A stretch of 24,000 nucleotides of DNA from Firmicutes bacterium UBA1739 (GTDB lineage: Bacteria; Bacillota; Clostridia; Peptostreptococcales; Anaerovoracaceae), in the NCBI GenBank assembly GCA_002315385.1, contig DCHZ01000025.1:23287-47286 (forward strand), written 5' to 3'. Below, piece after piece: positions 319 through 20,989 of the stretch (its first letter is position 1; every line of letters starts with the position of its first letter). The notes under the pieces were generated by a model. It ran no database searches and was not told where the DNA came from. It was given only the letters and a program-made list of their open reading frames with translations. A program made the position numbers and the translations under genes.

Positions 319-421
319 GGTGAACCGGGTTAAACAGAGCAGAGTATATTTGATAATTCAGACTGAGAGCATTTGAAACCGAACATTCAGGGAATAAACA
401 ATACTGAAAGGAGAGCATGGA

Positions 422-1140: not shown

Positions 1141-1151
1141 AAACGCAAAGA

Positions 1152-1222
1152 CACCGTTAATCTCACAGATTTATGATTGAAATTACTGCATTCAATCGAA
1201 GACAATGAGAACGGTGCCTTGT
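1152..1222. terminator. possible nested-hairpin terminator between convergent crcB and the 1224-1754 gene
   Basis: Outer stem CACCGTT (1152-1158) / AACGGTG (1210-1216) encloses inner stem GATTGAA (1175-1181) / TTCAATC (1191-1197). It is followed by CCTTGTTTTACTTTTTC. The geometry is atypical. Confidence 0.3.
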
Positions 1223-1223
1223 T

Positions 1224-1754: not shown

Positions 1755-1771
1755 ATCTCAGCTCCTGACAC

Positions 1772-1800
1772 AAAACCGGGAAGTCGTCAGACCCGGTTTT
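1772..1800 (-). terminator. rho-independent terminator downstream of fabV
   Basis: AAAACCGGG (1772-1780) / CCCGGTTTT (1792-1800), 9-bp stem with an 11-nt loop. On the minus strand it is followed by TTTTGTGTC. It overlaps the fabV stop codon. Confidence 0.5.
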
Positions 1801-2983
1801 ATTCATAATATTGAGAAACATCGGAATTATAATCTATATTATCATATCTGAATCCGAACATATGATAAAAATCTTCCCAATAGTCCGACAGACCAGCCAG
1901 TTCTTCAGCGTTTTCGGTGTTGAGATGATCCATATTCCGGGTGATCCGGTTCTGAATCTCATCCTGAAGCTCGAAATCATCCAGTCTGATAATGCCATCA
2001 CTGTCGGTAATTACAGGTCTGCCCGGCAGCATTTTTTCCGTAAAAAGTCTGTTCATGTGCTGTATGCAGTCTTCATAACAGCCGGCGTTCTGCATAACTT
2101 TTCTGGCAACGGCGATATAAATCGGAGCCATGGGAATGGCTATGCTGGCCTGAGTAACCATACTTTTGTTCATGGATGTATATGCCCGAACTCCCAGATT
2201 GGAAAAATCAGTACAGATTAATTTTGAAGTTTCATAAACATGTTTTTTTGCAAAACCCATTGTACCGTGTCTGTATATAGGATAGGTAAGCTTCGGCCCG
2301 AGATATGAGAAAGCAACAGTAATAGCATTTCTGCTGAGGGCATCTGCATCCGAAAGTGCTTTTATCCAGTTGTACCAGTCTTCTCCGCCCATTACTTTAA
2401 CCGAGTCGTGGATTTCCTTTTCGGTGGCACATTCCATTCTGCCTTCTATAATTTCCAGTGTGTTTAAATCCAGATCCTTACTGATAAAAGGCTTTCCTGT
2501 GGTTTTAAGTGAAGAACGGTAAACCGTACCGTCATCCATAGCTCTTTTCGGAGCGGCAAGACTGTAAATAACCATATCAATCTGACCGAGCTCAGATTTG
2601 ATTATGTCAATAACCTTTGACTTTGTAGATGACAGGAAAGCATCTTCATTGACGGTTTTTGTCCGGAATCCATCGGCAGTGACAAGCTTATCAAAAGCAT
2701 GGTAGTTGTACCAGCCGGGGGAAGCGGTTTTTGTTTCGGAAGGCTCTCTTTCCCGGCATACTCCGATGGTTGATGCTCCGTAGGCATAGGTGGCCGCAAT
2801 TCTTGCGGAAAGCCCGTATCCTGCTGAACAGCCTATAATAAGAACTCTTTTGGGAGGTTCAGCTTCAAAGTCAGTTTTAGGAAGATTCTTCATGTAATTA
2901 ATTTCTCTTCTGACATGCTCTTCGCATCCAAGGGGATGAGCTGTGGAGCATAGAAAAGCGTTTACTTTTGGTTGAATTATCAT
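1799..2983 (-). CDS. fabV: trans-2-enoyl-CoA / enoyl-ACP reductase, FabV/Ter family
   Basis: 394 aa. N-terminus MIIQPKVNAFLCSTAHPLGCEEHV... and ...RVLIIGCSAGYGLSARIA... match the FabV/Ter pattern, and length is typical. RBS AGAGGTG. Confidence 0.9.
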   Translation of the reverse strand: MIIQPKVNAFLCSTAHPLGCEEHVRREINYMKNLPKTDFEAEPPKRVLIIGCSAGYGLSARIAATYAYGASTIGVCREREPSETKTASPGWYNYHAFDKLVTADGFRTKTVNEDAFLSSTKSKVIDIIKSELGQIDMVIYSLAAPKRAMDDGTVYRSSLKTTGKPFISKDLDLNTLEIIEGRMECATEKEIHDSVKVMGGEDWYNWIKALSDADALSRNAITVAFSYLGPKLTYPIYRHGTMGFAKKHVYETSKLICTDFSNLGVRAYTSMNKSMVTQASIAIPMAPIYIAVARKVMQNAGCYEDCIQHMNRLFTEKMLPGRPVITDSDGIIRLDDFELQDEIQNRITRNMDHLNTENAEELAGLSDYWEDFYHMFGFRYDNIDYNSDVSQYYE

Positions 2984-3168
2984 TGATTAGCACCTCTGAT
3001 TATGATAGTCATATAAGAACAGTAATTAATTATTGTATTTCCGGTTTGTCGAAAAAAACGGCACTGTATTATCTGTGATTTTCGTTAATATAGTTGATGT
3101 TTCGTTTTCTTCATATATAATAATTATAGTAAATTTTTACATAATATGCAATGATGGGAGAGATAATT

Positions 3169-3654
3169 ATGAGAATAGAATATAGCAAAGTTCTGATAAT
3201 TATGGAAATTATCGGTGTAATGATTCTTCTGGCTATACTGATAGCCACTGCGTACGTCTATCCGACTCTTCCGGACCGGGTGCCGACGCATTTTAATGCT
3301 CTCGGAGAGGCTGACCGATGGGGAGGAAAAGGGTATCTGTGGTTTGTGCCGGCAATGTCGGTTTTTCTTTATCTGTTAATAACAATAGCAGGTTTTTTTC
3401 CGAAAACATGGAATTACCCGTCAAAAATCGATCCGTCAAAGCTGCCTCTGGCAGAGAAAAAGGTCAGAAATCTGCTTATGATTGTCAAACTGATTATTAC
3501 AGCCATGTTTGGATATATACAATATATGATACTGAAGCTGTCGGGGCAGATATCCTTTCTGATAATGATATTGTTTACAGCTGTGCTTTTTGGAATAATT
3601 ATTTACTATATCGTTTCTCTGAGCAGACTGTCGGTTAAAGCTCAAAGAAAATGA
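3169..3654 (+). CDS. DUF1648-domain membrane protein
   Basis: The LPDRVPTHFNALGEADRWGGKG motif after the first TM helix is characteristic of DUF1648, and further TM helices follow. Start moved to the ATG at 3169, which has a GGGAGAG RBS; the track start at 3151 has none. Confidence 0.7.
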   Translation: MRIEYSKVLIIMEIIGVMILLAILIATAYVYPTLPDRVPTHFNALGEADRWGGKGYLWFVPAMSVFLYLLITIAGFFPKTWNYPSKIDPSKLPLAEKKVRNLLMIVKLIITAMFGYIQYMILKLSGQISFLIMILFTAVLFGIIIYYIVSLSRLSVKAQRK

Positions 3655-3704
3655 AATAAATATATGCATGTTTTTAGATTAGAAATTATTGAAACAGAGG
3701 AATA

Positions 3705-4553
3705 ATGAAAATGAGAGAAATATCTGTCAAAAAAATCACAGAAGCGGTGGCGGAGATGTCAGTTAATGCTAATTCTTTTCTGGGAGAAGATGTGTGTGAA
3801 AGAATAACCGAATGCAGAAAGAAAGAAGACTGGCCGGCAGCTGCCGAAATACTGAGCAAAATTGAAGAAAATATCAGAATAGCCCGGGAGGATCTGGTGC
3901 CGCTGTGTCAGGACACCGGAATGGCATGCGTGTTTATCGAAATAGGACAGGACGTGCATGTTGTGGGCGGCAGTATTGAAGAGGCCGTCAATGAAGGGGT
4001 AAGAAAAGGTTATACAGAGGGATATCTGAGGAAGTCTATTGTTAAAGACCCGATTCGTCGGGGCAACACGGGAGACAATACACCCGCGCATATTCATTAT
4101 GAAATAGTTCCGGGAGACAGACTGAAAATAGTGCTGGCACCGAAAGGGTTCGGCTCGGAGAATATGAGCCGGATCAAAATGTTTGCACCGGCTGCCGGAG
4201 AAAACGGCGTAAAAGATTTCATTGTTAACTGTGTCGAAGAAGCCGGAGCCAACCCGTGCCCGCCGGTGGTGGTGGGAGTCGGAATCGGAGGAACCTTTGA
4301 CCGGGCGGCGCTGATGGCAAAGCAGGCTCTGCTCAGACCGATGAAGGATTCAAATCCGGACCCGTATTATGCGGAAATGGAAAATGAGCTTCTGGAGAGA
4401 ATTAACAGCCTGGGAATAGGCCCGCAGGGATTTGGAGGAAGAACCACAGCACTGGCTGTGAAAATACAGACATATCCCACACATATTGCGGGAATGCCCG
4501 TGGCGGTCAATATCAACTGCCACGTTTCCAGACATCGGGAGGTGATCCTTTAA
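3705..4553 (+). CDS. class I (Fe-S) fumarate hydratase / tartrate dehydratase, alpha subunit
   Basis: 282 aa. Motifs PLCQDTGMACVF, GFGSENMS and NPCPPVVVGVGIGGT are typical of the N-terminal catalytic domain of class I fumarases. Stop overlaps the start of the beta subunit. Confidence 0.9.
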   Translation: MKMREISVKKITEAVAEMSVNANSFLGEDVCERITECRKKEDWPAAAEILSKIEENIRIAREDLVPLCQDTGMACVFIEIGQDVHVVGGSIEEAVNEGVRKGYTEGYLRKSIVKDPIRRGNTGDNTPAHIHYEIVPGDRLKIVLAPKGFGSENMSRIKMFAPAAGENGVKDFIVNCVEEAGANPCPPVVVGVGIGGTFDRAALMAKQALLRPMKDSNPDPYYAEMENELLERINSLGIGPQGFGGRTTALAVKIQTYPTHIAGMPVAVNINCHVSRHREVIL

Positions 4554-5291: not shown

Positions 5292-5741
5292 ATGATAATA
5301 TCGAGGTTGCCGTCATTTACGAGTGCGGTAGTATCACCGGACAGAGTGGTTCTTACGGCAATTGATAAGGTATTTGCATTATGCGGAGCAACCATCGCAA
5401 CAATAATAATGTCCAACTGTGATATTGCAAGCCCGGGTTTTGCAATGATAGTCGGAATTCCGGCAGGAATCCTGAGCGTAGTGGGGTATAATATCATTGC
5501 ACCGAGACTACAGAAGCTTATCCGAGGAACAGACACCTGCGGAGTGCATAACCTTCACGGTATGCCGGGACTTTTGGGAGGATTATCTGTAATAGTACTT
5601 TGCGGAAACGTTAAAGTTCAGCTTCTGGGGATGATCGTTACAGTAGTAATCGCTTTAGTGGGCGGCAGAATTGAGGGAGCCATTATCGGTCTTCTCGGTA
5701 CAAAGGCTGTTGCTTACAGTGATGAAGGAGAATTTAAATAA
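5292..5741 (+). pseudogene. C-terminal remnant of an Rh-type (Rh50-like) ammonium transporter
   Basis: 149 aa containing TDTCGVHNLHGMPGLLGG, the Rh-family version of the twin-His pore motif (AmtB has D.C.V.GVHG..G). Only about 4 TM helices are present against about 11 expected. An AT-rich junction lies upstream with no recognisable RBS. Confidence 0.55.
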
Positions 5742-8334: not shown

Positions 8335-8943
8335 ATGAATAAAAAACTTATCGCAGGAATTCTGTCTTTGTCTTTGATTTTATCGTCTGCATTTTCAGCT
8401 TTTGCGGAGGATGCAACCCCCATAGCATATGCAGGCAATGATAACAGTGACAAATCAACGAGTACAATAGCAGTACAGATCGGAAATTATGCGGCAACGG
8501 TGGACAGTATGCTCGTATCAATAGATCCTGATAACAGGAAGGTTGTGCCGTATATTAAAAATAACAGAACATATATTCCTTTAAAATTCATCGGAGAGAA
8601 TCTTGGTGCACAGGTGTCCTGGGACAGTAAAAAAAGGGAAGCGATTATTCAAAAAGACAATACAAAAGTGGTAATTCCGGTGAATAAATCGTATTACTAT
8701 ATTAATTCAGTAAAGCATAATCTGGACGCACCGGCTGAAATCTATCAGAACAGGACCTTTGTTCCTATGAGATTCGTAGCGGAAGCGCTTAATATGGCGG
8801 TATACTGGGATAAAGATGCCAAGATGGCAGTAATTGCTCCTAAAGACAGGCAATGGACCGGCGTTAATAGTATTGAAGAAGATTTAATTGTTCAATATCT
8901 CATTTTAGTATATCCGTTTTTAAAAGATCATAGTGTCGATTAA
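8335..8943 (+). CDS. secreted protein with copper-amine-oxidase N-terminal (stalk) domain repeats
   Basis: Signal peptide (MNKKLIAGILSLSLILSSAFSAFA). Two repeats of the pattern NRTY/FVP(L/M)(K/R)F..E.LG/N..V.WD. Strong AAGGAGG RBS. Confidence 0.75.
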   Translation: MNKKLIAGILSLSLILSSAFSAFAEDATPIAYAGNDNSDKSTSTIAVQIGNYAATVDSMLVSIDPDNRKVVPYIKNNRTYIPLKFIGENLGAQVSWDSKKREAIIQKDNTKVVIPVNKSYYYINSVKHNLDAPAEIYQNRTFVPMRFVAEALNMAVYWDKDAKMAVIAPKDRQWTGVNSIEEDLIVQYLILVYPFLKDHSVD

Positions 8944-8954
8944 TACCGAACAGC

Positions 8955-8994
8955 ACATGAGACATGGAAAAATCCCTGTCTCATGTTATTTTTG
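8955..8994 (+). terminator. rho-independent terminator
   Basis: ACATGAGACA (8955-8964) / TGTCTCATGT (8977-8986), perfect 10-bp stem, followed by TATTTTTG. Confidence 0.7.
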
Positions 8995-9013
8995 ACAAAA
9001 AATACGGTCTCAC

Positions 9014-9048
9014 AAAAACAGCCCGGACTTAGGACCCGGACTGTTTTT
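9014..9048 (-). terminator. bidirectional hairpin terminator, most likely serving the 9095-9274 minus-strand gene
   Basis: AAAAACAG-C-CCGG (9014-9026) / CCGG-A-CTGTTTTT (9036-9048) with one C/A mismatch. Flanked by A5 and T5. Confidence 0.5.
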
Positions 9049-9094
9049 ACAGAGTCGCCGGGGTTATGTGCCCGGCTGCTGCATAATTATTAAC

Positions 9095-9274
9095 CTATTC
9101 GGCCGGCTGCCATTTGCATCTTACAGGCGAAACAATCTTTTCTTCCTTTTTTAGTTCTTTAAAAGCCTTGTCAATTTCCTTTCTGTCGATTCCTGTCATT
9201 TTTTCCACTTCTCCGGCACTGATGGGCTTTCCGGCTTCTTTCATAGCAGCGATTACAGCATCTTTAACTTCCAT
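9095..9274 (-). CDS. small winged-helix DNA-binding protein (59 aa), absent from the supplied ORF track
   Basis: Reverse translation gives MEVKDAVIAAMKEAGKPISAGEVEKMTGIDRKEIDKAFKELKKEEKIVSPVRCKWQPAE, with an AGGAG RBS 7 nt upstream. The helix-turn-helix-wing layout is typical of small MarR-like wHTH proteins. The plus-strand ORF 9114-9302 is its low-complexity shadow. Confidence 0.7.
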   Translation of the reverse strand: MEVKDAVIAAMKEAGKPISAGEVEKMTGIDRKEIDKAFKELKKEEKIVSPVRCKWQPAE

Positions 9275-9475
9275 GGTATATCTCCTTTCGATTTTGAAAT
9301 AATAATTTTGTTTATGAAATCATTATATATGTAAATCGAGTAATAATGCAATAAATAATTGAAACGTCCGGTAAAAACCATTGACTTTAATGAGTTTTTA
9401 TGGAAAAATCGATATTAAAGAGTATCCCGGAGTTTCGTATCTTTAAGCCGGGGATTCAATAATCAGGAGGACAGC

Positions 9476-9676
9476 ATGATATACATTAACGATATGAAAA
9501 GACCGTTTCACGATGGAATGACTATTTCAGATGCTTTCAGGGAGAATAACATTAAAATCCGACCGGGATTTCTGGTTTTTGTAAATGATGAAGAAATTGA
9601 TTTTTCGGAGTATGATTCATTTGAACTTCATGACGAAGATGACATCCAGCAGATGTTTCCTTTCCTTGTTGAATAG
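9476..9676 (+). CDS. ThiS/MoaD-like beta-grasp small protein lacking the C-terminal Gly-Gly
   Basis: 66 aa with an AGGAGG RBS. The layout MIYIN......GMTISD........V.VNDEEI..SEYDSFEL.DEDDIQ runs parallel to ThiS, but the protein ends ...FPFLVE instead of ...VGG. Confidence 0.5.
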   Translation: MIYINDMKRPFHDGMTISDAFRENNIKIRPGFLVFVNDEEIDFSEYDSFELHDEDDIQQMFPFLVE

Positions 9677-9695
9677 TGTGAAAGAAACAGTTAAT

Positions 9696-9723
9696 AAGGG
9701 CGTCCTGAGGGCAGGGCGCCTTT
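9696..9723. terminator. bidirectional terminator between convergent genes
   Basis: AAGGGCGTCCTG (9696-9707) - AGGG - CAGGGCGCCTTT (9712-9723). 12-bp stem including two G-U pairs. Confidence 0.65.
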
Positions 9724-9726
9724 GCT

Positions 9727-9963
9727 TTAATATACAATCACCAGAATAACATCCTCGCCGATTACTTTTACATCCTTCCACTTGATTTCCTTCTCCTCAT
9801 ATCCTGTCAGAATTCCCATGAGACCGCTTTTCTGAACCGGAATTATCAAAGAATATATCCGGGATTTTTCTATATTTATGTTAATATCCGATGCAAAACC
9901 GAGACTTTTCCCGTTCGTAAGATTTATTATCTCCCTGTTTTTAATTTCCCTGCCGGTAATCAT
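9727..9963 (-). CDS. ylmC: YlmC/YmxH-family sporulation protein (PRC-barrel)
   Basis: 78 aa. REIINLTNGKSLGF..D..I......I.SLIIP... and IKWKDVKVIGEDVILV match the YlmC/YmxH pattern. GGAGGG RBS. Confidence 0.85.
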   Translation of the reverse strand: MITGREIKNREIINLTNGKSLGFASDININIEKSRIYSLIIPVQKSGLMGILTGYEEKEIKWKDVKVIGEDVILVIVY

Positions 9964-9987
9964 TTTAGCCCTCCAATAAACAGAATA

Positions 9988-10037
9988 TATCCGAATTGAA
10001 AAAAATCTTAAAAGGTGTCCGGATTATAATTCGGATA
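9988..10037. promoter_or_regulatory. 10-bp inverted repeat in the ylmC upstream region
   Basis: TATCCGAATT (9988-9997) and AATTCGGATA (10028-10037) are perfect reverse complements 30 nt apart. The right arm also sits within the local near-palindrome TCCGGATTATAATTCGGA (10019-10036). Confidence 0.3.
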
Positions 10038-10249
10038 AAGCTATCTTTAATACTTAATATATTAATATATATTACTGAAACATGTCTTTATTACAGAATA
10101 AATGAAGCGCCGGCAGTCTGAACCGGTAAACATGGAAAGAAAAGCCCCAAACAGGCAAAAATCAGATACCAAACAAAATGACTCCGGACCGAGTTTTGGC
10201 AGGGAGGGACAGAGACATTCCCGAATCAGAAAAAAACAAATATCAAATG

Positions 10250-10297
10250 AAATGTCTCCATATTTGCAAAAAATTCAAAATATGGAGACATTTTTTT
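10250..10297. terminator. perfect 16-bp hairpin, bidirectional terminator candidate (copy 1 of a repeated module)
   Basis: AAATGTCTCCATATTT (10250-10265) / AAATATGGAGACATTT (10278-10293) with a 12-nt loop. TTTT follows on the plus strand, and CATTTGATATTTGTTTTTTT follows on the minus strand. Confidence 0.55.
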
Positions 10298-10410
10298 GAT
10301 TTGAGCAGTAAATGATGCGTATGCTTTTCATCAATATTTAAAATATGGGAAAAAATAGGATAATTCAGACGCAAATTTACTTCCGAACCCACCTATTATT
10401 CACTTTTTTG

Positions 10411-10465
10411 CAAATAATGTCTCCATTTTTTTTAAAATATCAAAATGTGGAGAAATTTCTGCTGA
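10411..10465. repeat. diverged second copy of the 10243-10300 hairpin module
   Basis: CAAATAATGTCTCCAT...CAAAATGTGGAGAAATTT parallels CAAATGAAATGTCTCCAT...CAAAATATGGAGACATTT. The stem is degraded to about 6-8 bp. Confidence 0.45.
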
Positions 10466-10642
10466 GATTTAGTTTTTGACTTTATCTGACTTTAGTTGTG
10501 CCGGTTGTGCTTTTATTCAAACGAAAAACCGGTCTGAAACCGTCAAAAATTACGATGTTTCCGGCCCGACCCAATGCGTCCGGCTGTGCCGGTTCAGAGC
10601 CCGATCGCCTGTTCCGAAGAACGGATAAAGGTGTCACAAGTG

Positions 10643-11824
10643 TCAATCAGGGTCAGAACCGGTGAAACCTACAATTTCATTTACTGCTTTTGCGGCTTCA
10701 ACGGCATCTTCTTCGGTGTTAAAGTATCCGAAAGAGAATCTGACACTTCCCTCCGGATAGCTTCCTAAAGCTTTGTGGGCGGAAGGAGCACAGTGAAGAC
10801 CCACTCTGGTTTTAATTCCGTAATCAGATTCCAGGGTAGCCGAAACCGCAGCACAGTCAATCTCCGTAAAGCACAGAGAAACGACACCAAGGCAGGCACA
10901 GCCGTTATCGTGAGCAAGTATTCTCAGTCCCTTAGTTCCTTTTATTTTTGAAATAAACAGCTCCGCAAGGCAGTTTTCTTTTTCAAGTATTGCTGCGATA
11001 CCTTTTTCTTTGATAAATCTGAGACCGGCCCAAAGGCCGAAAATGCCGGGAAGATTAGGAGTGCCGGGCTCAAACCTGTCTGGCAGAAAACCGGGTATTG
11101 TTTCAAGATGTGATATACTGCCGGTTCCCCCGCTGATAAGAGGAGTTATTTCCGGGACAATTCTGTTGGACAGAATAAATCCTCCGATACCCTGAGGCCC
11201 CATAAGTCCCTTATGACCTGTGAAGCAAAGTGCATCAATATTGTCTTTTTCCATATCAATCTCATAGCTTCCACCTGTCTGAGCGGAATCCACTATGAAG
11301 AACAATCCGTGTTTTTTGCAGAATTCTCCGGTTTCGCGAAGGGGAAGAATCATTCCGGATACATTTGATGCATGAGTCATGATTACAGCTTTAGTGTTTT
11401 TTTGAATCAGAGCTTCAAGTGAAGATACGTCAAAGAATAATTCATCGTTTTCGTTGGTGTTAAGTCCGGCCATACTGAGCTTCATACCATGTTCTTCCAG
11501 CTGACGCAGAGGTCTCATTACCGCATTGTGAGGAAGAGGGCATACGATTACGTGATCCGAAGCAGTGAGTAGACCCTTCAGTACGATATTCAGACTGAGA
11601 GTGATTCCGGAAGTGAAAATGACGTTTTTCTCGTCCGAACCGTTGAAAAGCTCTTTGAGAAGAGCTCTGGTTTCAAAAACAATATCCTCGGCTTCGTAGG
11701 CACTCTGATAGCTTCCACGATTTATATTGCTTCCGATGCGGGTAATATATTCTGTCATTTTTTCCGCCACAGAAGGCGGCTTCGGAAAAGACGTTGCCGC
11801 ATTGTCAAGATAAATATCCCTCAT
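10643..11824 (-). CDS. class V aminotransferase, cysteine desulfurase / selenocysteine lyase family (EF2568 type)
   Basis: 393 aa. N-terminus [16 protein letters not shown]-lysine motif [12 protein letters not shown], and catalytic-Cys loop [11 protein letters not shown]. The start overlaps the selD stop (ATGA). Confidence 0.85.
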
Positions 11825-12852
11825 TCGACTTTCACATCCTTTCCTGAGTAATCAGTTATATAGCCAATTATTGCCGCATCAGTGTGGTGACGGAGATCAC
11901 TGAGCAGTTTCAGGGCATCCGGCTCAGAGACAGCTATCAGCAATCCTCCGGAAGTCTGAGGATCATACATAATGTCTAAAAGAGGTAGTGATACTGATGA
12001 ATAGGCCTCAGTTTCGGATTCCGCATAATCTCTGTTACGGTATGCTCCCGCAGGAATCATTCCCATTGAAGCAAATTCCAGAGCATCCCGATGAAAATTC
12101 AGACTTGCTGATGTAATATGAACAGTAACTCCGCTGCCTGCTGCCATTTCACGGCAGTGACCGATTAGCCCGAATCCTGTGATATCAGTGCAGGAATGTA
12201 CCTGGTAATTTATCATGTTATCATGAGACTTTTTATTCAGTTCTGTCATTTGAATGGTAATTCTGTCAATAAGTGATTCGGAGACAAGACCGGCTTTTGC
12301 GGCAGTGGTAATTATGCCTATACCCAAAGGTTTTGTAAGAATCAGCACATCCCCGGGCAGAGCTCCTGAGTTTGTAAGGATTTTTTTAGGATGAACAAAG
12401 CCCGTAACTGAGAGACCGTATTTGGGTTCGGTGTCGTTTATAGTATGTCCGCCGGAGATAATTGCCCCGGCTTCGTAGGTTTTTTCGTAACCACCTCTGA
12501 GTATTTCGTGAACAGTCTCCCGTGTCATTGTTTCGGTAACCGTCATTATATTCAGAGCAAGCTTAGGTTCGCCGCCCATGGCGTATACATCGCTGAGGGC
12601 ATTGGCTGCCGCAATCTGACCGAAAAGGTGAGGATCATCCACAATGGGCGGGAAAAAATCCAGTGTCTGGACCAGTGCCAGTTCATCGTTTACGATATAA
12701 ACAGAAGCATCATCGCTTTTGTCAAAGCCGACGACCAGCTTATCATCCTTTATTACGGGAAGTCCTTCGAGCAGCTGAGCCAGAGTCCCTGCCCCGACCT
12801 TTGCTCCGCATCCTGCACAGGATGAGAGCTTTGTAAGTTTAATATCCTTCAT
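11821..12852 (-). CDS. selD: selenide, water dikinase (selenophosphate synthetase), Cys-type
   Basis: 343 aa. N-terminal [15 protein letters not shown] (Cys three residues before the catalytic Lys, encoded TGC rather than TGA). DDASVY and [30 protein letters not shown] motifs. GAGGA RBS. Confidence 0.92.
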
Positions 12853-12893
12853 AAGTTTGTCCTCGCTATTATTTCAGCTGTTTTTTCGCCAAA

Positions 12894-12953
12894 CCGGAAT
12901 CAGCTGTTAATCACCGGAACCGGCTGTTAATCACCGGAAACGGCTGTTAATCA
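12894..12953. repeat. 3 x 20-nt head-to-tail tandem repeat spanning the DUF3343 stop codon and the spacer to selD
   Basis: CCGGAATCAGCTGTTAATCA (12894-12913), CCGGAACCGGCTGTTAATCA (12914-12933), CCGGAAACGGCTGTTAATCA (12934-12953). A looser fourth match, TCAGCTGTT, lies at 12874-12882. Confidence 0.9.
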
Positions 12954-13207
12954 ACAGAAGAATAGACAGTTTCGTATTCTGTGTTTTTGGCTGAAAAGTC
13001 GGGCTTCAGCATTACTATCTGTTCGACTTCGTCCATGTTCTGCGGAAAGATGAGACTTTCTGCTTCAAAAACAGCACAGGTTCCGCATGATGACGACAGA
13101 AAGCGGGGAACCGGCTTCAGCTGTACTTCGGTCCCCGCTTTTCTCATTTCGCTTTTCAATCTTGATGCACCGAAGTGCGAATAAAATGTAATTATATAAG
13201 TGTTCAT
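12947..13207 (-). CDS. DUF3343-family putative Se/S carrier protein
   Basis: 86 aa. YIITFYSHFGASRLKSEMRKAG...KPVPRFLSSSCGTCAVF matches the DUF3343 pattern (P.PR..S..CG). ATGA overlap with the upstream yedF-like gene. Confidence 0.75.
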   Translation of the reverse strand: MNTYIITFYSHFGASRLKSEMRKAGTEVQLKPVPRFLSSSCGTCAVFEAESLIFPQNMDEVEQIVMLKPDFSAKNTEYETVYSSVD

Positions 13208-13410
13208 TTCTTTCTTTCAAGATATATGGTGTAAGTATCCCCTTTGTTTTCACTTGAAACACTGAAGCCCTGATGATTTGCAAACCTTGAGATGTTTTCA
13301 AAGGATGTACGGTTATCAGTGACAACAGTGTAGGAATCTTCTCCGGATTCCATAGCTTTTTTTACCATAATAACAGGTTCGGGGCATGAAAGTCCACATG
13401 TATCAATCAT
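13204..13410 (-). CDS. yedF: TusA/SirA/YedF-like sulfur/selenium transfer protein
   Basis: 68 aa. DTCGLSCPEPVIMVKKAM is the CPxP active-site motif of the TusA/YedF fold. AGGAGG RBS. Confidence 0.8.
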   Translation of the reverse strand: MIDTCGLSCPEPVIMVKKAMESGEDSYTVVTDNRTSFENISRFANHQGFSVSSENKGDTYTIYLERKK

Positions 13411-13425
13411 TTTTTTCCTCCTGAA

Positions 13426-14499
13426 TTAAGCTTTACTCTTTTTGGTGTTAATTATTGCGATAATTGTAATTACGCAGAGGCCGATTATTACGCCGATTTT
13501 TCCTGCAGATGTAACGCTGTCAGCAGAAGATGCAAGACCGAAGTTGTGGCAGAAAGCCGCACCGACAAGAAGGCCGAGAACGGTAATCGCAGAATCGGAA
13601 TTTCCTTCTCCGGACAGAACCAGCTGTCTCAGAGGGCAGCCGCCCAAAAGAACGCAGCCGTATCCGACTAAAAGCATACCCATGAAATTCCAGAGACCGT
13701 CATTATGAGCAATAGGCTGTCCGGTAAAACCGGGATTAAAGTTACCTAAGCAGAGGTTGATAATAAATGCCGTTGCAAGTAAGACAAGGAAACCGATTAA
13801 AAGTCTTTTTTCTCTGAAAAGTACGAAATCACGTATTCCACCTACCATACAGAGTCTGGAAAGCTGAGCCATTCCGCCGACAGTTAAACCTGCTATGAGA
13901 GACAGTAAAACAGGTGCATGTGATGCACCGGGGCCTTCAGCAGAGAAATATATGAACGCAGGTGCCGCTATAAGTAGAATAAAAAGAGCAATCTGGACAA
14001 CCGGCATAGTTCCGCCTTCTACAGCAGTTTGTGAGTAAGCACGTTTGAGAGAGAATCCTTTTTTAAGAAATATGATTCCTATGAGTATGCCGACAATAAA
14101 GCCTGCAAGACCTACAATCGCATTGAGGTCACCGCCGGCGATTCTCAGAGTCATTCTCAGAGGACAGCCCAGAAACATCAGACAGCCCACCATAACGAAG
14201 AACGCGATAACAAATCTTGTGATGGGAGAGGAACCACCCCGGGGCTTGAATTCTTTTCTGAAAAGTGCAGTTCCGAAAGCACCGAGAACAAGACCGATAA
14301 TTTCCGGTCTTATATATTGAACTTTGGCCGCTGTGTGAAGCCCTAAAGCTCCGGCAGTATCTCTGATAAAGCAGGCTATACAGAACCCCATGTTCTTAGG
14401 ATTTCCGTATTTAACAAGAATCGCACCGAACAGACCTGCAAGGATTCCGCAGACAGCAATAATCAGGTACTCTTTTTTTGATGACTGTAACTCATTCAT
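13426..14499 (-). CDS. yedE: YedE/YeeE-family membrane protein (putative selenium/thiosulfate-type importer)
   Basis: 357 aa, polytopic. Conserved Cys-bearing half-helices GFCIACF, FLGCPLR and LGGCPLRQL are typical of YedE/YeeE. GAGGTG RBS. Confidence 0.85.
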   Translation of the reverse strand: MNELQSSKKEYLIIAVCGILAGLFGAILVKYGNPKNMGFCIACFIRDTAGALGLHTAAKVQYIRPEIIGLVLGAFGTALFRKEFKPRGGSSPITRFVIAFFVMVGCLMFLGCPLRMTLRIAGGDLNAIVGLAGFIVGILIGIIFLKKGFSLKRAYSQTAVEGGTMPVVQIALFILLIAAPAFIYFSAEGPGASHAPVLLSLIAGLTVGGMAQLSRLCMVGGIRDFVLFREKRLLIGFLVLLATAFIINLCLGNFNPGFTGQPIAHNDGLWNFMGMLLVGYGCVLLGGCPLRQLVLSGEGNSDSAITVLGLLVGAAFCHNFGLASSADSVTSAGKIGVIIGLCVITIIAIINTKKSKA

Positions 14500-14537
14500 T
14501 TTTTCACCTCGAATAAATATGATTTTTCAGGTCCCGT

Positions 14538-14558
14538 ATAGTAATAGACTATTACTAT
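14538..14558. promoter_or_regulatory. perfect 10+10 bp palindrome in the yedE leader (operator or leader-hairpin candidate)
   Basis: ATAGTAATAG-A-CTATTACTAT, 39-59 nt upstream of the yedE ATG. It contains a dyad T-N11-A (T14542...A14554), as expected for LysR-type sites. Confidence 0.5.
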
Positions 14559-14829
14559 CCCAAAACCGGTATATGAAAATTATAAACTATTATAATGCAA
14601 AAATGAAATTGATTTATTTGATAAATAGATATATCATATAGGAAGAAGTTATAAATACCATGTTATTCTGAAATACCCGGCAGTATGATTGGGAAGCATC
14701 CCGGCGGATGTGACAACTTAATCAAAGCCCGGAAATCCCGTATGAATTATACACAGTTTCAATTAGTGTGGATGCAGGATCAGAAAAGAAAGCGTAAGAT
14801 GATAAAAAAACAAAAAAACGAGTAACAGG

Positions 14830-15504
14830 GTGAAGGGTATGAAGAAAAGGCTTTATAATAAACTTGGAATAAAAAAAGGTCTGACCTCGATTATCGGCTC
14901 AGGAGGAAAGACAACGCTGATAAAAAAACTTGCCGGTGAAATGAAAAAAGACGGATTCAGCGTTATTATCACAACAACGACGAAAATTTTCGTCCCTGAT
15001 TTCTGTCCCCTGGTCTGCAATCCGTCGGAAAACCGCGAAATGATTGACAGACTTATTGAGGAAAACGGAATTGTCGCTGTGGGAAGGCCCGTACTGACAC
15101 AATCCGGAGCGGTAAAACTGGGAAAATGCGAAACAGAATTTGAGGAGCTTGTAAAAGCTGCGGATTTTGTCCTGGTAGAAGCAGACGGGTCAAAGCATAT
15201 GCCGCTGAAGGCTCATGCGGAATATGAGCCGGTAATCCCGGACTGCACAAATCGGATAATACAGGTTGCGGATATTGCCGGAATCGGGAAAACTGCAGTT
15301 GAGGCAGTCCACAGATTCGAGATTTTTATAAGCATCACAGGCTCCGGTGCCGATGAAATCGTTACCGGGGAGGCTGTTGCCGAAGTGATTAATCAGGAAA
15401 AACTCGCCGATGTACTGTATATCAGTGGAATCAATGAAGAGAATCGCAAATTAGCGGAAAAACTGTCGAAACTGATAAATATTCCGGCGGTTATGGAGGA
15501 ATGA
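14830..15504 (+). CDS. yqeC: YqeC-family selenium-dependent molybdenum hydroxylase accessory protein
   Basis: P-loop-like IIGSGGKTTL, then VIITTTTKI and VLVEADGSKHMPLKAHAEYEPVIP, as in YqeC. The start is either the GTG at 14830 or the in-frame ATG at 14839. Confidence 0.8.
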   Translation: MKGMKKRLYNKLGIKKGLTSIIGSGGKTTLIKKLAGEMKKDGFSVIITTTTKIFVPDFCPLVCNPSENREMIDRLIEENGIVAVGRPVLTQSGAVKLGKCETEFEELVKAADFVLVEADGSKHMPLKAHAEYEPVIPDCTNRIIQVADIAGIGKTAVEAVHRFEIFISITGSGADEIVTGEAVAEVINQEKLADVLYISGINEENRKLAEKLSKLINIPAVMEE

Positions 15505-15506
15505 TA

Positions 15507-16409
15507 ATGGATTTCAGGCAAATTGAAACTTTTGCGGCGGTGGTGGAGCAAAAAAGCTTTTCCGCTGCTGCGGAAGCGTTACATGTGAGTCAGCCAACGG
15601 TGAGCAGTCATATAAAAGCTCTGGAGGCTGAGGTGGGCAGAGAGCTTATCACAAGAACAACCAAGCATTTTTACGTTACGCAGGACGGTTACCGTTTTTA
15701 CGAATATGCCGCAAATCTGCTGAAGCTCAGAAGAAGAGCTCTTTATGATATGACAAACAACAGTACGACAGTTATTCATATCAGTGCTTCAACAATACCG
15801 TCTGCTTATATTCTTCCGGGTATCATTTCAGAATTTAAAGCTGTACGGCCGGATGTGACTGTAAGCGTAATACAGTCAGACAGCGGAAAGGCAGTGGAAA
15901 GACTGATGGAGGGAAATGCCGATCTGGGAGTGGTGGGTTCCACCGGATACTCCGAAAATATTTATTTCAGCGAAATTATGAAAGACCGGCTTGTGGTATG
16001 TGCTCCGCCGGAAAAGTATTATAAAGAACTTAAAGCGGCGGGAACGGATTTAAGAACATTGCTGAAAGAGCCGATAATATTAAGAGAAAAAAGCTCCGGA
16101 ACCAAGAAGGAGGCCGAAAACATTCTGAAAAGAATGGAAATATCAGAGAATGATCTTAATATAGCGGCTTATATGAACGATATGGAAGCAATAAAAAAAT
16201 GCATTGCCGGCGGGCTGGGAATTTCAATTGTTTCATTTCTGTCTGTAGCGAAAGAGGCGGAAAGAGGCGAAGTGGTTGTTATGGAGCCTCCGGAATTATC
16301 CGGAGGCAGAAGCTTTTACATAGCTTTAAGAAAAGACTATGTTGTACCGGCAGCAGTGGAAGAGTTTATTGCGTATTTAAGAAAAAGTGTGGGCAGAAAC
16401 TGCCGGTGA
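15507..16409 (+). CDS. LysR-family transcriptional regulator (selenium-metabolism-associated by context)
   Basis: N-terminal wHTH FRQIETFAAVVEQKSFSAAAEALHVSQPTVSSHIKALE, followed by a LysR substrate-binding domain. GGAGGA RBS 6 nt before the ATG at 15507; the track start at 15501 overlaps the yqeC stop. Confidence 0.85.
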   Translation: MDFRQIETFAAVVEQKSFSAAAEALHVSQPTVSSHIKALEAEVGRELITRTTKHFYVTQDGYRFYEYAANLLKLRRRALYDMTNNSTTVIHISASTIPSAYILPGIISEFKAVRPDVTVSVIQSDSGKAVERLMEGNADLGVVGSTGYSENIYFSEIMKDRLVVCAPPEKYYKELKAAGTDLRTLLKEPIILREKSSGTKKEAENILKRMEISENDLNIAAYMNDMEAIKKCIAGGLGISIVSFLSVAKEAERGEVVVMEPPELSGGRSFYIALRKDYVVPAAVEEFIAYLRKSVGRNCR

Positions 16410-16537
16410 AATCAGTGCGGTAACCGGATGTACGAAAAGCAGAACCGTAAATACAAATGCAGGTGCAGCCGGTAAATATATCGGAATTTAATGCGGATAA
16501 ATGTTAAAAGTAGTTATTAAAAGCCGGGAGGAAAAAC

Positions 16538-17344
16538 ATGGAAGTAATTCTGATAAAAGGCGCGGGCGATATTGCCAGTGGCATTGCATACAGGTTGAAA
16601 AAGTGCGGATACAGGATAATTATGACTGAAACGGCTGTGCCGACGACGGTAAGGAGAACTGTGGCTTTTTCCGGAGCTGTTTATGAAGGCAGCTGCAGTG
16701 TTGAAGGTATACGGGCTGAATTGTGTAAGAATATTGAGGAAATAGAAAACTGCATCGAAAGAGATGTGATTCCCGTAATTGTTGATGAAAAAGCGGAAAT
16801 TATCGGCGAAGTCAGTCCTGATGTGGTGGTAGATGCAATACTGGCGAAAAAAAACCTGGGAACGGACAGAAGCCTGGCACCGTTTGTGATAGGTGTAGGA
16901 CCCGGGTTTACCGCCGGAGTAGACTGTGACTGCGTAATAGAGACAAAAAGAGGGCATTATTTAGGTAGAGTAATAGAAAAAGGGAGTGCGATACCGAACA
17001 CCGGCGTACCGGGCGAGATTGGAGGATACAGCATAGAGAGGATAATACGGGCTGAGGCAGAAGGAGTTTTTGTTCCCCGGAAATCCATCGGTGATGAAGT
17101 GCGGGAAGGCGATGTAGTGGCAGAATCCGGCGGAAAGAAAATCCGTGCACGAATGCCGGGTCTGATAAGAGGAATGCTTCAGGAGGGAGTAATAGTTACT
17201 CCGGGAATGAAGTGCGGAGATATTGATGCAAGATGTGAATATGAGTACTGTTTTGAAATATCCGATAAGGCTCTTGCGGTTGCCGGAGGTGTTCTGGAGG
17301 CAGTGGTGAGCCGCAGAAGCGGAAGATTTGAGAGAAATGATTGA
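16538..17344 (+). CDS. yqeB: YqeB/EF2563-family selenium-dependent molybdenum hydroxylase system protein
   Basis: 268 aa. N-terminus ILIKGAGDIASGIAYRLKKCGYRIIMTE..VPTTVRRTVAFSGAVYEG fits the family recalled from E. coli YqeB (C-terminal part) and E. faecalis EF2563. GGGAGG RBS. Confidence 0.75.
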   Translation: MEVILIKGAGDIASGIAYRLKKCGYRIIMTETAVPTTVRRTVAFSGAVYEGSCSVEGIRAELCKNIEEIENCIERDVIPVIVDEKAEIIGEVSPDVVVDAILAKKNLGTDRSLAPFVIGVGPGFTAGVDCDCVIETKRGHYLGRVIEKGSAIPNTGVPGEIGGYSIERIIRAEAEGVFVPRKSIGDEVREGDVVAESGGKKIRARMPGLIRGMLQEGVIVTPGMKCGDIDARCEYEYCFEISDKALAVAGGVLEAVVSRRSGRFERND

Positions 17345-17363
17345 GATACCGGGAGGAATTGTG

Positions 17364-18401
17364 ATGCAGAAGGTTTTTGAAAAAGGAAAAGAATTACTGG
17401 AACAGGGCAAAAGCTTTGTATACGCGGCAATAATATCCAAAAAAGGATCTGCGCCTTCCGATGTTGGGGCCCGAATGATAGTAACGCCATGTGAAGTGAC
17501 GGGAACGATAGGAGGCGGCGGTGTTGAGGCTGATGTAATAGAATATGCAAGAAAACAAACCTTAACAGATAAGAAGGCCGCAATAAGATATTATAATCTT
17601 AATTCAGATGAAGCTGCGGTTTCGGAGTTCATCTGCGGAGGAGAAACCGAGGTTATGCTGCTGTATATTGATGCCGGGGATAAAGATAATCATGAAATAT
17701 TTGCACGGGCCGTGGATGCGGTGGAGCATCAGAAAAAAGCATGGTTTGTATATGGAATAAATAATGAAAACGGCAAATCTCATATTTCTGTTGTATTAAA
17801 TGTAGATAATGAAGGAATATTCGGAAGATTTGAAGAAGGTTCAAATGTCAAACGGGAAATGCTGGCAAATCCTGTGAGAATCGCAATACAGGAGGAGGCG
17901 GATAGAGAAAAAGGCAGAAGATATGTTGTAGACAGCCTGGAGAATCCCGGCAGGATGTATCTTTTCGGCGGAGGACATGTTTCTCTGGAAGTCGCAAAGC
18001 TGGCGGTCGGACTGGATTATAAAGTCACTGTTATTGATGACAGACAGGAGTATTCTAATACAGGGAGGTTTCCGGGCTGCGAATGTCTTACCGTTGGCAG
18101 CTTTGATGAAATACCTGATCTGGAGATTAATTCCAATACATATATTTTAATTATTACCAGAGGGCATGCGGGAGATAAGGCCGCTCTGAAATGGGCTGTT
18201 GACAGAAAAGCGAAATATTTAGGAATGATAGGCAGCAAGTCCAAGAGAGACCGGATTTATGATATGCTGGTCAGTGAAGGCATTGACAGAGAACGGCTTA
18301 ACGCAGTTCATTGTCCCATCGGCCTGCCCATCGGAGCAAAAACGCCTCAGGAGATTGCCGTGAGCATTATGGCAGAGCTGATATCAGAAAGAAGAAAATA
18401 A
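17364..18401 (+). CDS. xdhC: XdhC/CoxI-family molybdenum hydroxylase maturation protein
   Basis: N-terminal XdhC_CoxI pattern (AAIISKKGSAPSDVGARMIV...GTIGGGGVE) and C-terminal Rossmann pattern (LFGGGHVSLEVAKLAVGLDYKVTVIDDR...YLGMIGSKSK). Start set at the ATG at 17364 after GGGAGGA. Confidence 0.85.
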   Translation: MQKVFEKGKELLEQGKSFVYAAIISKKGSAPSDVGARMIVTPCEVTGTIGGGGVEADVIEYARKQTLTDKKAAIRYYNLNSDEAAVSEFICGGETEVMLLYIDAGDKDNHEIFARAVDAVEHQKKAWFVYGINNENGKSHISVVLNVDNEGIFGRFEEGSNVKREMLANPVRIAIQEEADREKGRRYVVDSLENPGRMYLFGGGHVSLEVAKLAVGLDYKVTVIDDRQEYSNTGRFPGCECLTVGSFDEIPDLEINSNTYILIITRGHAGDKAALKWAVDRKAKYLGMIGSKSKRDRIYDMLVSEGIDRERLNAVHCPIGLPIGAKTPQEIAVSIMAELISERRK

Positions 18402-18557
18402 ACGGAGGATGTTTTCGATTCATAAGGATTCGGTTTTGAAGTCCGGAAAAAATATGATAGAATACAGAAAATGCTATTGCGAAAAAGATGAGAATAAAGG
18501 AATAAAGAAAAAACAGGAAAAACAGTAGAAATCAGAAAAAAGCAGGAGAAGCAGTGT

Positions 18558-19139
18558 ATGAATAATATTTTTGAATCATTAATTGAAATGACCGGCAGAG
18601 CAAAGGGTCTGGTGGAGTTTGCCGACGGAACCGTAGTTATCTGTGACTGGAGCCCTTTGGACGGAAGCCCCAGACTTGCGGTGGGAAGTATGTCAGGTTC
18701 GACAGATCCGGTTGAAGTTGAATCCGAAATCAGAGTAAAGTGCTGGAAGACCTTTGCGGAGGATGCGTCTTCTCTGATTAACTGTCTGGGAATAGATGTG
18801 GAAAGTGAAGAAGACTGCGGAGCTCGTATTTTCAATCTGACAGATGATATTTCGATAATAGTTCCGGACAACTGGGAGGAAAATAAAAAAACAATACCTG
18901 TTGCGGAAACTGAAAAGAAGGACGGAATGTTCTGTACCTGTAAAGATACAGCATGCCGCTTTCATCCTGTAAACCATGACAGGGGATGTACGCCCTGTAT
19001 TGAGAATAATCTCGGGAAGGGGGAAATCCCCGGATGTTTTATAAACAAAGCAGGCCTTCCGGGAAAAACGGAAGGATACTCAATAAAAGATTTTGCGGAG
19101 ACTTTGATGTTTTTGAATAAATCTACTGTGGAAATATGA
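18558..19139 (+). CDS. hypothetical two-domain protein: unknown N-terminal domain fused to a Cys/His-rich (DUF6485-like) C-terminal domain
   Basis: 193 aa with an AGGAGA RBS. The C-terminal segment CTCKDTACRFHPVNHDRGCTPCIENNLGKGEIPGCF carries 6 Cys and 2 His. The N-terminal ~120 aa match nothing I recognise. Confidence 0.6.
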   Translation: MNNIFESLIEMTGRAKGLVEFADGTVVICDWSPLDGSPRLAVGSMSGSTDPVEVESEIRVKCWKTFAEDASSLINCLGIDVESEEDCGARIFNLTDDISIIVPDNWEENKKTIPVAETEKKDGMFCTCKDTACRFHPVNHDRGCTPCIENNLGKGEIPGCFINKAGLPGKTEGYSIKDFAETLMFLNKSTVEI

Positions 19140-20127: not shown

Positions 20128-20157
20128 TTGAATTGTTTTTACATTTCATGATATAAT
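20128..20157 (+). promoter_or_regulatory. sigma-A-type promoter candidate
   Basis: TTGAAT (20128-20133), 18-nt spacer, TATAAT (20152-20157). The AGGAGG RBS and the ATG at 20180 lie downstream. Confidence 0.5.
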
Positions 20158-20179
20158 GAAAAAAAAAGGAGGAAATTTT

Positions 20180-20989
20180 ATGAAAAAGATTATAGCGGTA
20201 TCATTAACAATAGCATTATGCTTATCGCTTTGCGCCTGCGGAAAGAGTGCAAAAGCCGAAAGTGGAGATCAGTTCGTAAAAAGCGGCACACTTACAAAAG
20301 CCAATGTTTCACAGGAAGAATTGTCTCAGATGATGAACGCATTAGATGATGTAGAACGTCAGATGGTTTATTTCGATAACCTTTCATCGATGGTGCTTGC
20401 ACTTAAATCTGATAATATTGATGAATTCTGGAGCACAACACCTGTCGGAAAGTATGTTGTTGAAAATAATGAAGATTTCACAATGGCAGAAATTGACTCC
20501 GGAGTGAAATATTCTATGTGTATGATGGAAGAGAATCAGGTGGTTTGCGATTTGATTAGTGAGGCAATCAAATCAATGAAAGAGGACGGAACTCTGCAGA
20601 AGCTTCAGGCAGATCTTATTGACGGAGAAAACATCAATCTTGAAACAGCTGATTATACACTTCCTGCATTTGACAGCGAAGTTGTTATTAAAGTTGGAAT
20701 CACAGGAGATTTACCACCGATGGACTACACTCTGGCTGACGGTACACCAAGAGGCTTCAACGTTGCTTTCCTTGCAGAATTATCAAACAGAATGGGCATG
20801 AATGTTGAGATAGTAAATATTGATTCGAGTTCAAGAACAGTTGCATTAACCAGTGGAAAAGTAGATGCACTTTTCTGGGTTTCCGTAAGTGATTTAGACG
20901 GAGACGGAATTTTCTCAGACGTTCCAAAGGGCACAGTATTAAGCGAACCGTATTTCGAAACCAAACACTGCACAGTAACAAAAAAATAA
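20180..20989 (+). CDS. lipoprotein with family-3 solute-binding-protein sequence in permuted order
   Basis: Lipobox LSLCAC. Residues ~180-277 (IKVGITGDLPPMDY..G.PRGFNVAF...SGKVDALFW...SEPYF) look like the N-terminal half of SBP_bac_3. Residues ~40-165 (FVKSGT...ALKSDNID.F...YSMCMMEEN...AIKSMKEDGTLQKLQ) look like the C-terminal half. The track start at 20156 lies inside the -10 box. Confidence 0.65.
   Translation: MKKIIAVSLTIALCLSLCACGKSAKAESGDQFVKSGTLTKANVSQEELSQMMNALDDVERQMVYFDNLSSMVLALKSDNIDEFWSTTPVGKYVVENNEDFTMAEIDSGVKYSMCMMEENQVVCDLISEAIKSMKEDGTLQKLQADLIDGENINLETADYTLPAFDSEVVIKVGITGDLPPMDYTLADGTPRGFNVAFLAELSNRMGMNVEIVNIDSSSRTVALTSGKVDALFWVSVSDLDGDGIFSDVPKGTVLSEPYFETKHCTVTKK

Follow-up and report, generated by a model that had tools for sequence, protein, structure and literature searches.

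The closest described relative of the locus analysed here is the EF2563–EF2571 cluster of Enterococcus faecalis, which is associated with a selenium-dependent xanthine dehydrogenase (XDH; Haft & Self 2008, PMC2276186; Zhang et al. 2008, PMC2432076). We analysed a 24,000-nt stretch of the genome of Firmicutes bacterium UBA1739 (contig DCHZ01000025.1, positions 23,287–47,286, forward strand; the whole stretch is hereafter the window), in which nine selenium-linked genes lie between positions 10643 and 18401. Both the E. faecalis cluster and this locus encode YqeB (EF2563), YqeC (EF2564), a SirA/TusA-like protein (EF2566), the selenophosphate synthetase SelD (EF2567), a class-V lyase of the EF2568/SclA family (EF2568) and XdhC (EF2571). 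The E. faecalis cluster additionally encloses its client enzyme (EF2570) and a MobA/MocA-related gene (EF2569), whereas this cassette has neither; conversely, YedE, DUF3343 and the regulator LysR_Se are present only here, and the DsrE-like domain of EF2566 is absent from the TusA-only protein of this locus. With a probability of roughly 80%, we read the locus as a self-contained nine-gene selenium cassette that supplies XDH-family molybdenum hydroxylases.

Three further bodies of work bear on this locus. In the Rhodobacter capsulatus model, sulfuration of the XdhC/NifS type places the terminal chalcogen onto the molybdenum cofactor (Moco) before the cofactor is inserted. An XdhC-family chaperone and a class-V pyridoxal-phosphate (PLP) lyase are common to that system and to this locus, which adds SelD, YqeB and YqeC and in which the chalcogen would be selenium, presumably donated by selenophosphate. 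The comparative genomics of Lin et al. 2015 (PMC5322559) linked YedE, YedF, DUF3343 and LysR_Se to SelD, as the initial annotation of the window had stated, and all four families stand here beside SelD and a gene of the selenocysteine (Sec)-lyase type. In that survey LysR_Se was found mainly in Sec-decoding clusters, whereas this locus has its gene between those of YqeC and YqeB, in an operon of the cofactor trait. Finally, the purine catabolism of Clostridioides difficile and Clostridium sporogenes shares with this locus selD, yqeB, yqeC and XDH-family enzymes (PMC11448449; bioRxiv 2025.04.24.650524), although yqeB, yqeC and selD are unlinked in C. difficile and form one compact divergent cassette here.

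Genetics in those two species, published in 2024 for C. difficile and in 2025 for C. sporogenes, showed that selD and yqeB are needed for selenium-dependent purine hydroxylases (PMC11448449; bioRxiv 2025.04.24.650524). Deletion of yqeB in C. difficile phenocopies deletion of selD on xanthine and urate (PMC11448449), and the molybdenum hydroxylase 2,8-dioxopurine dehydrogenase (DOPDH), when purified, is inactive if it was made in a selD mutant (bioRxiv 2025.04.24.650524). The locus is not a new system: its components and linkages are published and represented in NCBIfam, whose models for YqeB and YqeC already carry the label of selenium cofactor biosynthesis, and only the arrangement differs, with client and mocA lying outside. 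It leaves the overall picture unchanged, but the machinery is seldom found so compact and so complete.

Of the ways in which organisms use selenium, the one by which molybdenum hydroxylases receive their labile selenium ligand is the least understood, and it has become more relevant because gut anaerobes degrade purines and urate with these enzymes. With its nine genes packed into 7.8 kb and kept together in a second lineage, the cassette is a convenient candidate set for the reconstitution of selenium insertion in a heterologous host. The predicted folds of YqeB and YqeC, together with YqeB fusions, suggest testable roles for two proteins in which the recent literature sees no recognisable domains.

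Gene content, conservation and trait assignment

Families were assigned by searches with NCBIfam/TIGRFAM and Pfam profiles, judged against the curated cut-offs. The nine genes, from one end of the cassette to the other, are:

10643–11824, minus strand: csd, class-V PLP cysteine desulfurase of the selenocysteine-lyase type (EF2568/SclA family); TIGR01977, 417 bits (cut-off 377); PF00266
11821–12852, minus strand: selD, selenophosphate synthetase, Cys-type; TIGR00476, 376 bits (cut-off 125)
12947–13207, minus strand: DUF3343 (Se_S_carrier) small protein, 86 aa; PF11823, 43.5 bits (cut-off 25)
13204–13410, minus strand: "yedF", a carrier of the TusA/SirA fold, 68 aa; PF01206 (TusA), 64 bits (cut-off 28.6)
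13426–14499, minus strand: yedE, putative selenium transporter of the YedE family; TIGR04112, 507 bits (cut-off 200); PF04143
14839–15504, plus strand: yqeC, P-loop nucleoside triphosphatase (NTPase); TIGR03172, 160 bits (cut-off 73); PF19842
15501–16409, plus strand: lysR, the selenium-metabolism-associated regulator LysR_Se; NF040786 (LysR_Sec_metab), 310 bits (cut-off 250)
16538–17344, plus strand: yqeB (EF2563 family); TIGR03309, 352 bits (cut-off 220)
17364–18401, plus strand: xdhC, Moco chaperone or maturation factor of the XdhC family; PF02625, 64 bits, and PF13478, 143 bits

All nine open reading frames (ORFs) are present in the ORF list of the window on the strands and at the coordinates annotated initially, and eight of the nine pass a curated family cut-off (XdhC by way of its Pfam domains), the exception being "yedF". 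The leftward operon begins with yedE and continues through the tusA-like yedF, DUF3343 and selD to csd; divergent from it, the rightward operon comprises yqeC, lysR_Se, yqeB and xdhC. The proposal of nine selenium-linked genes in two divergent operons is thereby borne out in ORFs, strands and families, and the profile models agree with the identities suggested for SelD, DUF3343, YedE, YqeC, LysR_Se, YqeB, the EF2568-type csd and XdhC. The ATGA stop/start overlaps reported for yedF/DUF3343 and selD/csd were both read directly, and a third joins yqeC to lysR. Two starts were revised. That of yqeC, placed initially at 14830 (GTG), is most likely the ATG at 14839 behind AGGGTGAAGGG, on the evidence of the ribosome-binding site and of gene callers, which give 221 aa. 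That of xdhC is the ATG at 17364 behind GGGAGG, not the TTG at 17328, so that xdhC does not overlap yqeB.

The cassette recurs in another genome. Among GTDB representative genomes scanned with YqeB, which yielded 80 loci, neighbours were counted within 10 kb of yqeB: yqeC accompanies it at 67 of the 80, selD at 46, csd at 36, the large subunit of a molybdenum hydroxylase at 28, xdhC at 24, a TusA-type gene at 23, this lysR at 8, and yedE and DUF3343 at 3 each. All nine genes occur together only in the nearest relative, Firmicutes bacterium UBA1768 (YqeB 77% identical), where order and orientation are alike and the proteins are 58–82% identical. Beyond csd...xdhC the two contigs share no synteny; the csd-side flank in UBA1768 carries a ModABC-like ATP-binding cassette (ABC) transporter and a gene with a MoCF_biosynth (molybdopterin-binding) domain, so that the cassette there adjoins molybdenum genes. 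Because the nine genes are intact there amid unrelated flanks, they form a discrete conserved cassette, and a chance arrangement is excluded since nine selenium-linked families are contiguous and the same nine-gene order is found in a second genome.

The profile matches place the locus in the SelD/YqeB/YqeC "third" selenium (cofactor) trait, as initially assigned: the three markers score 376, 352 and 160 bits on TIGR00476, TIGR03309 and TIGR03172, all above cut-off, and lie within 5.5 kb. The initial annotation had made its reading hinge on the placement of YqeC and YqeB by these models, and both hold their place. An XDH-family enzyme, which also belongs to the trait, is encoded in the same organism by an operon on the same contig of the Joint Genome Institute (JGI), described below.

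Within the leftward operon, the match of SelD to TIGR00476 is at equivalog level and spans residues 5–312, with the expected N-terminal loop. We class the enzyme as Cys-type because its N-terminus, SSCAGCGAK, supplies the catalytic Cys15 (and Lys18) without an in-frame TGA; these residues are probably the counterparts of E. coli Cys17 and Lys20. YedE covers positions 2–336 of the 337 in TIGR04112, a full-length equivalog match that sets this predicted transporter apart from TsuA/YeeE, and it reaches only 23–28 bits on models of the thiosulfate transporter TsuA, to which its relationship is distant (E 1e-6). The csd product carries the group-II motif RVGLHCA (family pattern RXGXHCA). It scores 367 bits on the narrow SclA exception model NF040779, below the cut-off of 525; EF2568 (SclA) itself is a selenocysteine lyase (bioRxiv 2020.02.07.939272).

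The 68-aa "yedF" is where the initial labels needed qualification. It is a TusA-fold carrier by PF01206 and has the CPxP cysteine motif (GLSCPEP), but on TIGR03527, the model of selenium-type YedF, it reaches no more than 59.7 bits (cut-off 110). Because that match stops at model positions 1–68 of 194, the protein is TusA-only and lacks the DsrE-like half; the two-domain selenium-type architecture (~194 aa, >110 bits) is thus not that of this protein, which also falls below the cut-offs of the E. coli YedF (21.7 versus 79) and TusA (31.8 versus 78) models. By its sequence it is a protein that would work like the N-terminal domain of YedF, not a full member of that family. XdhC has both the XdhC_CoxI N-terminal and the XdhC_C Rossmann domain and lies just under two equivalog cut-offs (341 versus 350 on NF045664, XdhC_rel_AOR; 142 versus 161.6 on TIGR02964).

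Proposed selenium route and predicted folds

On the cassette reading, YedE would import selenium species, and the TusA-fold protein and DUF3343 would keep selenium on cysteines. The SclA-type lyase would free selenium from selenocysteine as an enzyme-bound perselenide, and SelD would convert selenide and ATP to selenophosphate. XdhC would carry the mature molybdenum cofactor, on which YqeB may swap the terminal sulfido or oxo ligand for selenium from selenophosphate. YqeC, like the metallochaperones MeaB and HypB, may couple nucleotide hydrolysis to hand-over or insertion, and LysR_Se would control both divergent promoters from the 339-nt intergenic region according to selenium status. The initial annotation had drawn a full chain of this kind, step by step, from gene content; here, too, everything that follows selenophosphate is inferred, as are the direction in which YedE transports, the operator and the client.

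Structural predictions suggest where YqeC and YqeB could act. The AlphaFold2 model of YqeC, built on a homologue alignment, has a predicted local distance difference test (pLDDT) score of 96.8, and its Foldseek matches (FtsY/Ffh, MeaB, BioD, NifH and HypB; template modelling (TM) score ~0.45) suggest that the fold is that of a SIMIBI-class P-loop NTPase. Invariant in the alignment are the Walker A motif GSGGKTT (G20, G22, G23 and K24) and an EADG motif; there is no invariant cysteine. For YqeB, the model (pLDDT 94.1, likewise on a homologue alignment) has a Rossmann-like N-terminal domain and a barrel-sandwich-hybrid C-terminal domain, with the motif GAGDIASG (consensus GAGDxAxG) in the former and the invariant cysteines Cys130 and Cys238 in the alignment. 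Of the 120 best YqeB homologues, 21 are fusions of 444–461 aa that include a MocA-type domain (NTP_transf_3, PF12804), and one, of 469 aa, includes domains of the DsrE and TusA families. Such fusions tie YqeB physically to the formation of dinucleotide Moco and to the selenium relay.

A different role for YqeB, as a biotinyl or lipoyl carrier, was rejected: a non-conserved "SGGxPI" stands where biotin carboxyl carrier protein (BCCP) has its hairpin "AMKM", and the invariant SDKA falls in a predicted helix. This comparison was a by-eye alignment of the YqeB consensus with E. coli BCCP.

A more far-reaching version of the cassette reading, which we consider unlikely, makes the locus a portable, self-sufficient "selenium-for-Moco" module that moves as a unit, with YqeB as the selenotransferase and YqeC as a SIMIBI NTPase gating hand-over to XdhC and the apo-enzyme. 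Moco in its cytosine-dinucleotide form would then be bound by the Rossmann-like domain of YqeB, a role that would account for the many YqeB/MocA-type fusions, and selenium from selenophosphate would be delivered by the barrel-sandwich domain with its cysteines. On this version the 7.8 kb, with uptake, carriers, activation, regulator and maturation factors, could be the smallest set from which selenium-dependent hydroxylase maturation can be reconstituted in a heterologous host.

A candidate client and alternative readings

The initial annotation saw no client enzyme, which is correct inside the 24 kb and does not hold for the contig. The window is 100% identical to the JGI metagenome contig 3300001598|EMG_10000216 (90,966 bp) and to contigs from SRR5323935; continuing the numbering of the window in both directions, we read window-equivalent positions -9900 to 40995, that is, 51 kb of this 91-kb contig. 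At window-equivalent 27349–30995 lies an operon for an XdhABC-type molybdenum hydroxylase, with an FAD-binding subunit of 284 aa, a 2Fe-2S subunit of 160 aa and a molybdenum-binding subunit of 758 aa. The apparent lack of a client is a window-edge effect, because this operon begins 3.3 kb past the window end, 8.9 kb downstream of xdhC. The best models for its large subunit are those of E. coli-type XdhA (582 and 562 bits, both below cut-off), followed by the alpha subunit of 4-hydroxybenzoyl-CoA reductase, which is also the top solved structure (1rm6_A). For the proposed route this enzyme would be the likeliest recipient on the contig, with others elsewhere in the genome equally possible.

The hydroxylase operon is preceded by a divergent 118-aa regulator resembling the ModE N-terminus and directly followed by four genes for a 2-oxoacid:ferredoxin oxidoreductase (ferredoxin-like delta, VorB-like alpha, thiamine-pyrophosphate-binding beta, and gamma subunits); hydroxylase and oxidoreductase (window-equivalent 27349–33927) may form one catabolic unit. 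None of the uric-acid pathway genes ygeW/X/Y, ssnA, ygfK and hyuA was seen on the 51 kb.

Whether the XdhABC-type enzyme is the selenium client is about even on mixed evidence. The alternative with the same even odds is that it is an ordinary sulfur-dependent xanthine or purine hydroxylase, the true selenium client or clients being encoded elsewhere in the genome. Ten unrelated genes, including those for the DUF6485 protein, CoaB-like, a short-chain dehydrogenase/reductase (SDR), MiaA, IlvE and a WYL regulator, separate xdhC from the hydroxylase operon. Moreover, in three contexts from other assemblies, homologues of the hydroxylase (64–81% identity) lack a yqeB or selD neighbour within 10 kb, and the 10 kb around the UBA1768 cassette are free of hydroxylase genes. 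Because neither shows linkage, the 8.9-kb proximity may be incidental. On the three homologue contexts we rejected the idea that this hydroxylase clade is a regular partner of yqeB and selD. Against the sulfur-dependent alternative, the enzyme is the only member of the XDH family on the 51 kb, and its best matches are the E. coli-type XdhA/XdhB/XdhC models; in E. coli, xdhABC, yqeB and yqeC share one region of the chromosome. In addition, its homologue in Eubacterium barkeri (64% identical) adjoins a xanthine/uracil permease, a neighbour that fits purine hydroxylation, the classic selenium-dependent reaction. Two of the three homologue contexts contain a ModE-like regulator, a Peripla_BP_2/FecCD ABC transporter, and a gene fusing NTPase_1 with a MocA-type (NTP_transf_3) domain.

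The second alternative, which we put a little short of even, is that the cassette has a dual purpose: the leftward operon and LysR_Se would constitute a general selenium supply that also serves selenocysteine and/or selenouridine (SeU) synthesis encoded elsewhere, only yqeC, yqeB and xdhC would be specific to Moco, and SelD would not be an orphan. Orthologues of LysR_Se are confined almost wholly to Sec-decoding organisms, and YedE, YedF and DUF3343 occur across all selenium traits (PMC5322559); the traits themselves co-occur significantly (PMC5029168), and the selD of the cassette is the sole copy on the 51 kb. What speaks for dedication to the cofactor trait is that selA, selB, ybbB and tRNA-Sec are all missing between window-equivalent -9900 and 40995, that SelD is of the Cys-type and that 10 of 32 organisms with the third trait, including many gut Clostridia of the Lachnospiraceae type, truly lack both the Sec and the SeU trait (PMC2432076). 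On whether this SelD is an orphan, the published surveys thus cut both ways. Inside the window the picture drawn initially stands, as ORF profiles detect no selA, selB, ybbB or molybdenum hydroxylase and a tRNA search finds no tRNA in the 24 kb.

Several of these observations weigh against a cassette dedicated to molybdenum hydroxylases, namely the unlinked hydroxylase homologues, the missing hydroxylase near the UBA1768 cassette and the statistical tie of LysR_Se to the Sec trait, because of which the leftward operon may have functions beyond the cofactor trait. To the same side of the balance belong four further points. First, no sequence signature is known that parts selenium-dependent hydroxylases, with their labile, non-selenocysteine selenium ligand, from sulfur-dependent ones (bioRxiv 2025.04.24.650524). 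Second, deletion of yqeC has no phenotype in C. difficile (PMC11448449), and, as the initial annotation had stated, the searchable literature still holds no biochemical demonstration of the activities of YqeB or YqeC. Third, the fold matches are weak, with TM scores of ~0.28 for YqeB, at the level of domains only and against solved structures, and of ~0.45 for YqeC. Fourth, specific homology between YqeB and XdhC found no support: BLASTP gave no match, and hhalign aligned only the Rossmann GxG segment with a probability of 1.7%.

Sulfur-dependent XDH is known to acquire its sulfur through XdhC-mediated sulfuration with the help of a NifS-like enzyme, and the locus might accordingly handle sulfur throughout, with a YeeE/TsuA-like thiosulfate importer, TusA, a desulfurase and XdhC serving ordinary Moco sulfuration. 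The distant relationship of YedE to TsuA and the breadth of the TusA and DUF3343 families, which are not selenium-specific (PMC5322559), would agree, but a bona fide SelD in the operon (three times its cut-off), a YedE that prefers the selenium-type model over those of TsuA by 507 bits to 23–28, and the scores of YqeB, YqeC and LysR_Se above the cut-offs of selenium-specific equivalog models make this highly improbable.

Control region and other features of the window

The two operons of the cassette diverge from a shared region, as proposed initially; its extent, given as 14500–14829 (330 nt), becomes 14500–14838 because of the corrected yqeC start. The non-coding features of the cassette are:

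10530–10542, minus strand: terminator-like hairpin and T-run ~100 nt past the csd stop (consensus scan only)
14500–14838, strandless: divergent intergenic control region, 339 nt (direct reading)
14541–14555, strandless: near-perfect palindrome GTAATAGACTATTAC, ~45 nt upstream of the yedE start
14602–14640, plus strand: block common to the intergenic regions of the window and of UBA1768 (alignment)

The common block contains the dyad ATTTAT-N3-ATAAAT (14612–14626, of the T-N11-A type), and a promoter scan finds a promoter-like TTGATT-17-TATCAT that overlaps the dyad and points to yqeC. From these elements we propose 14602–14640 as a candidate LysR_Se operator and yqeC promoter. In five other loci with lysR divergent from selD, an ATAGATA-type motif stands beside AT-rich dyads upstream of lysR. 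This motif, which in several lineages is accompanied by a -10-like element, ATGATA(T/C)A, may be a shared LysR_Se operator. The palindrome at 14541–14555, which is not conserved in UBA1768, is a candidate for a second operator or for a hairpin in the 5′ untranslated region. At the other end of the leftward operon, the hairpin at 10530–10542 probably marks its terminus. No Rfam family reaches its gathering threshold in the window, and the intergenic region has no match even at E<=1.

Just past xdhC, a gene at 18558–19139 (plus strand) with its own promoter-like site (18436–18463) encodes a 193-aa protein with a C-terminal Cys-rich DUF6485 domain (77.7 bits) and a faintly DUF362-like N-terminus. 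It is probably outside the system, because it is missing from the UBA1768 cassette. In UBA1768, the flank opposite csd encodes a radical-SAM protein and a type III toxin, ToxN; the flanking genes on the two sides of that cassette fall at 267–3956 and 13569–14090 of the UBA1768 locus.

The remaining ORFs of the window are housekeeping or unrelated genes (FabV, fumarate hydratase, ProA, Maf, a YlmC/YmxH sporulation protein, CoaB-like, SDR, MiaA and others). Membership of the organism in the Clostridia follows from the sporulation gene and from its nearest relatives. Two small ORFs that are called in public assemblies lie 1–1.5 kb from the csd end of the cassette: one of 66 aa (9476–9676, plus strand), whose weak Urm1 match (PF09138, E 9e-5) may reflect a ubiquitin-like beta-grasp fold, and one of 59 aa (9095–9274, minus strand). 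The mostly non-coding gap of ~680 nt between ylmC and csd holds an inverted repeat (10244–10300) that overlaps a dubious basic ORF of 65 aa (10102–10299) and has weak hairpin-type Rfam matches on both strands; in a scan of 8900–10700, these sub-threshold chance matches on the repeat were the only ones. Further upstream, a 149-aa ORF (5292–5741, plus strand) matches only positions 254–331 of the 399 in the ammonium transporter profile and looks like a remnant or pseudogene of amt. On the far side of the cassette, the 277-aa product of 20156–20989 (plus strand) matches only positions 1–62 of the 132 in SBP_bac_3, through its residues 178–239; the protein appears to bind amino acids but to be atypical or rearranged.

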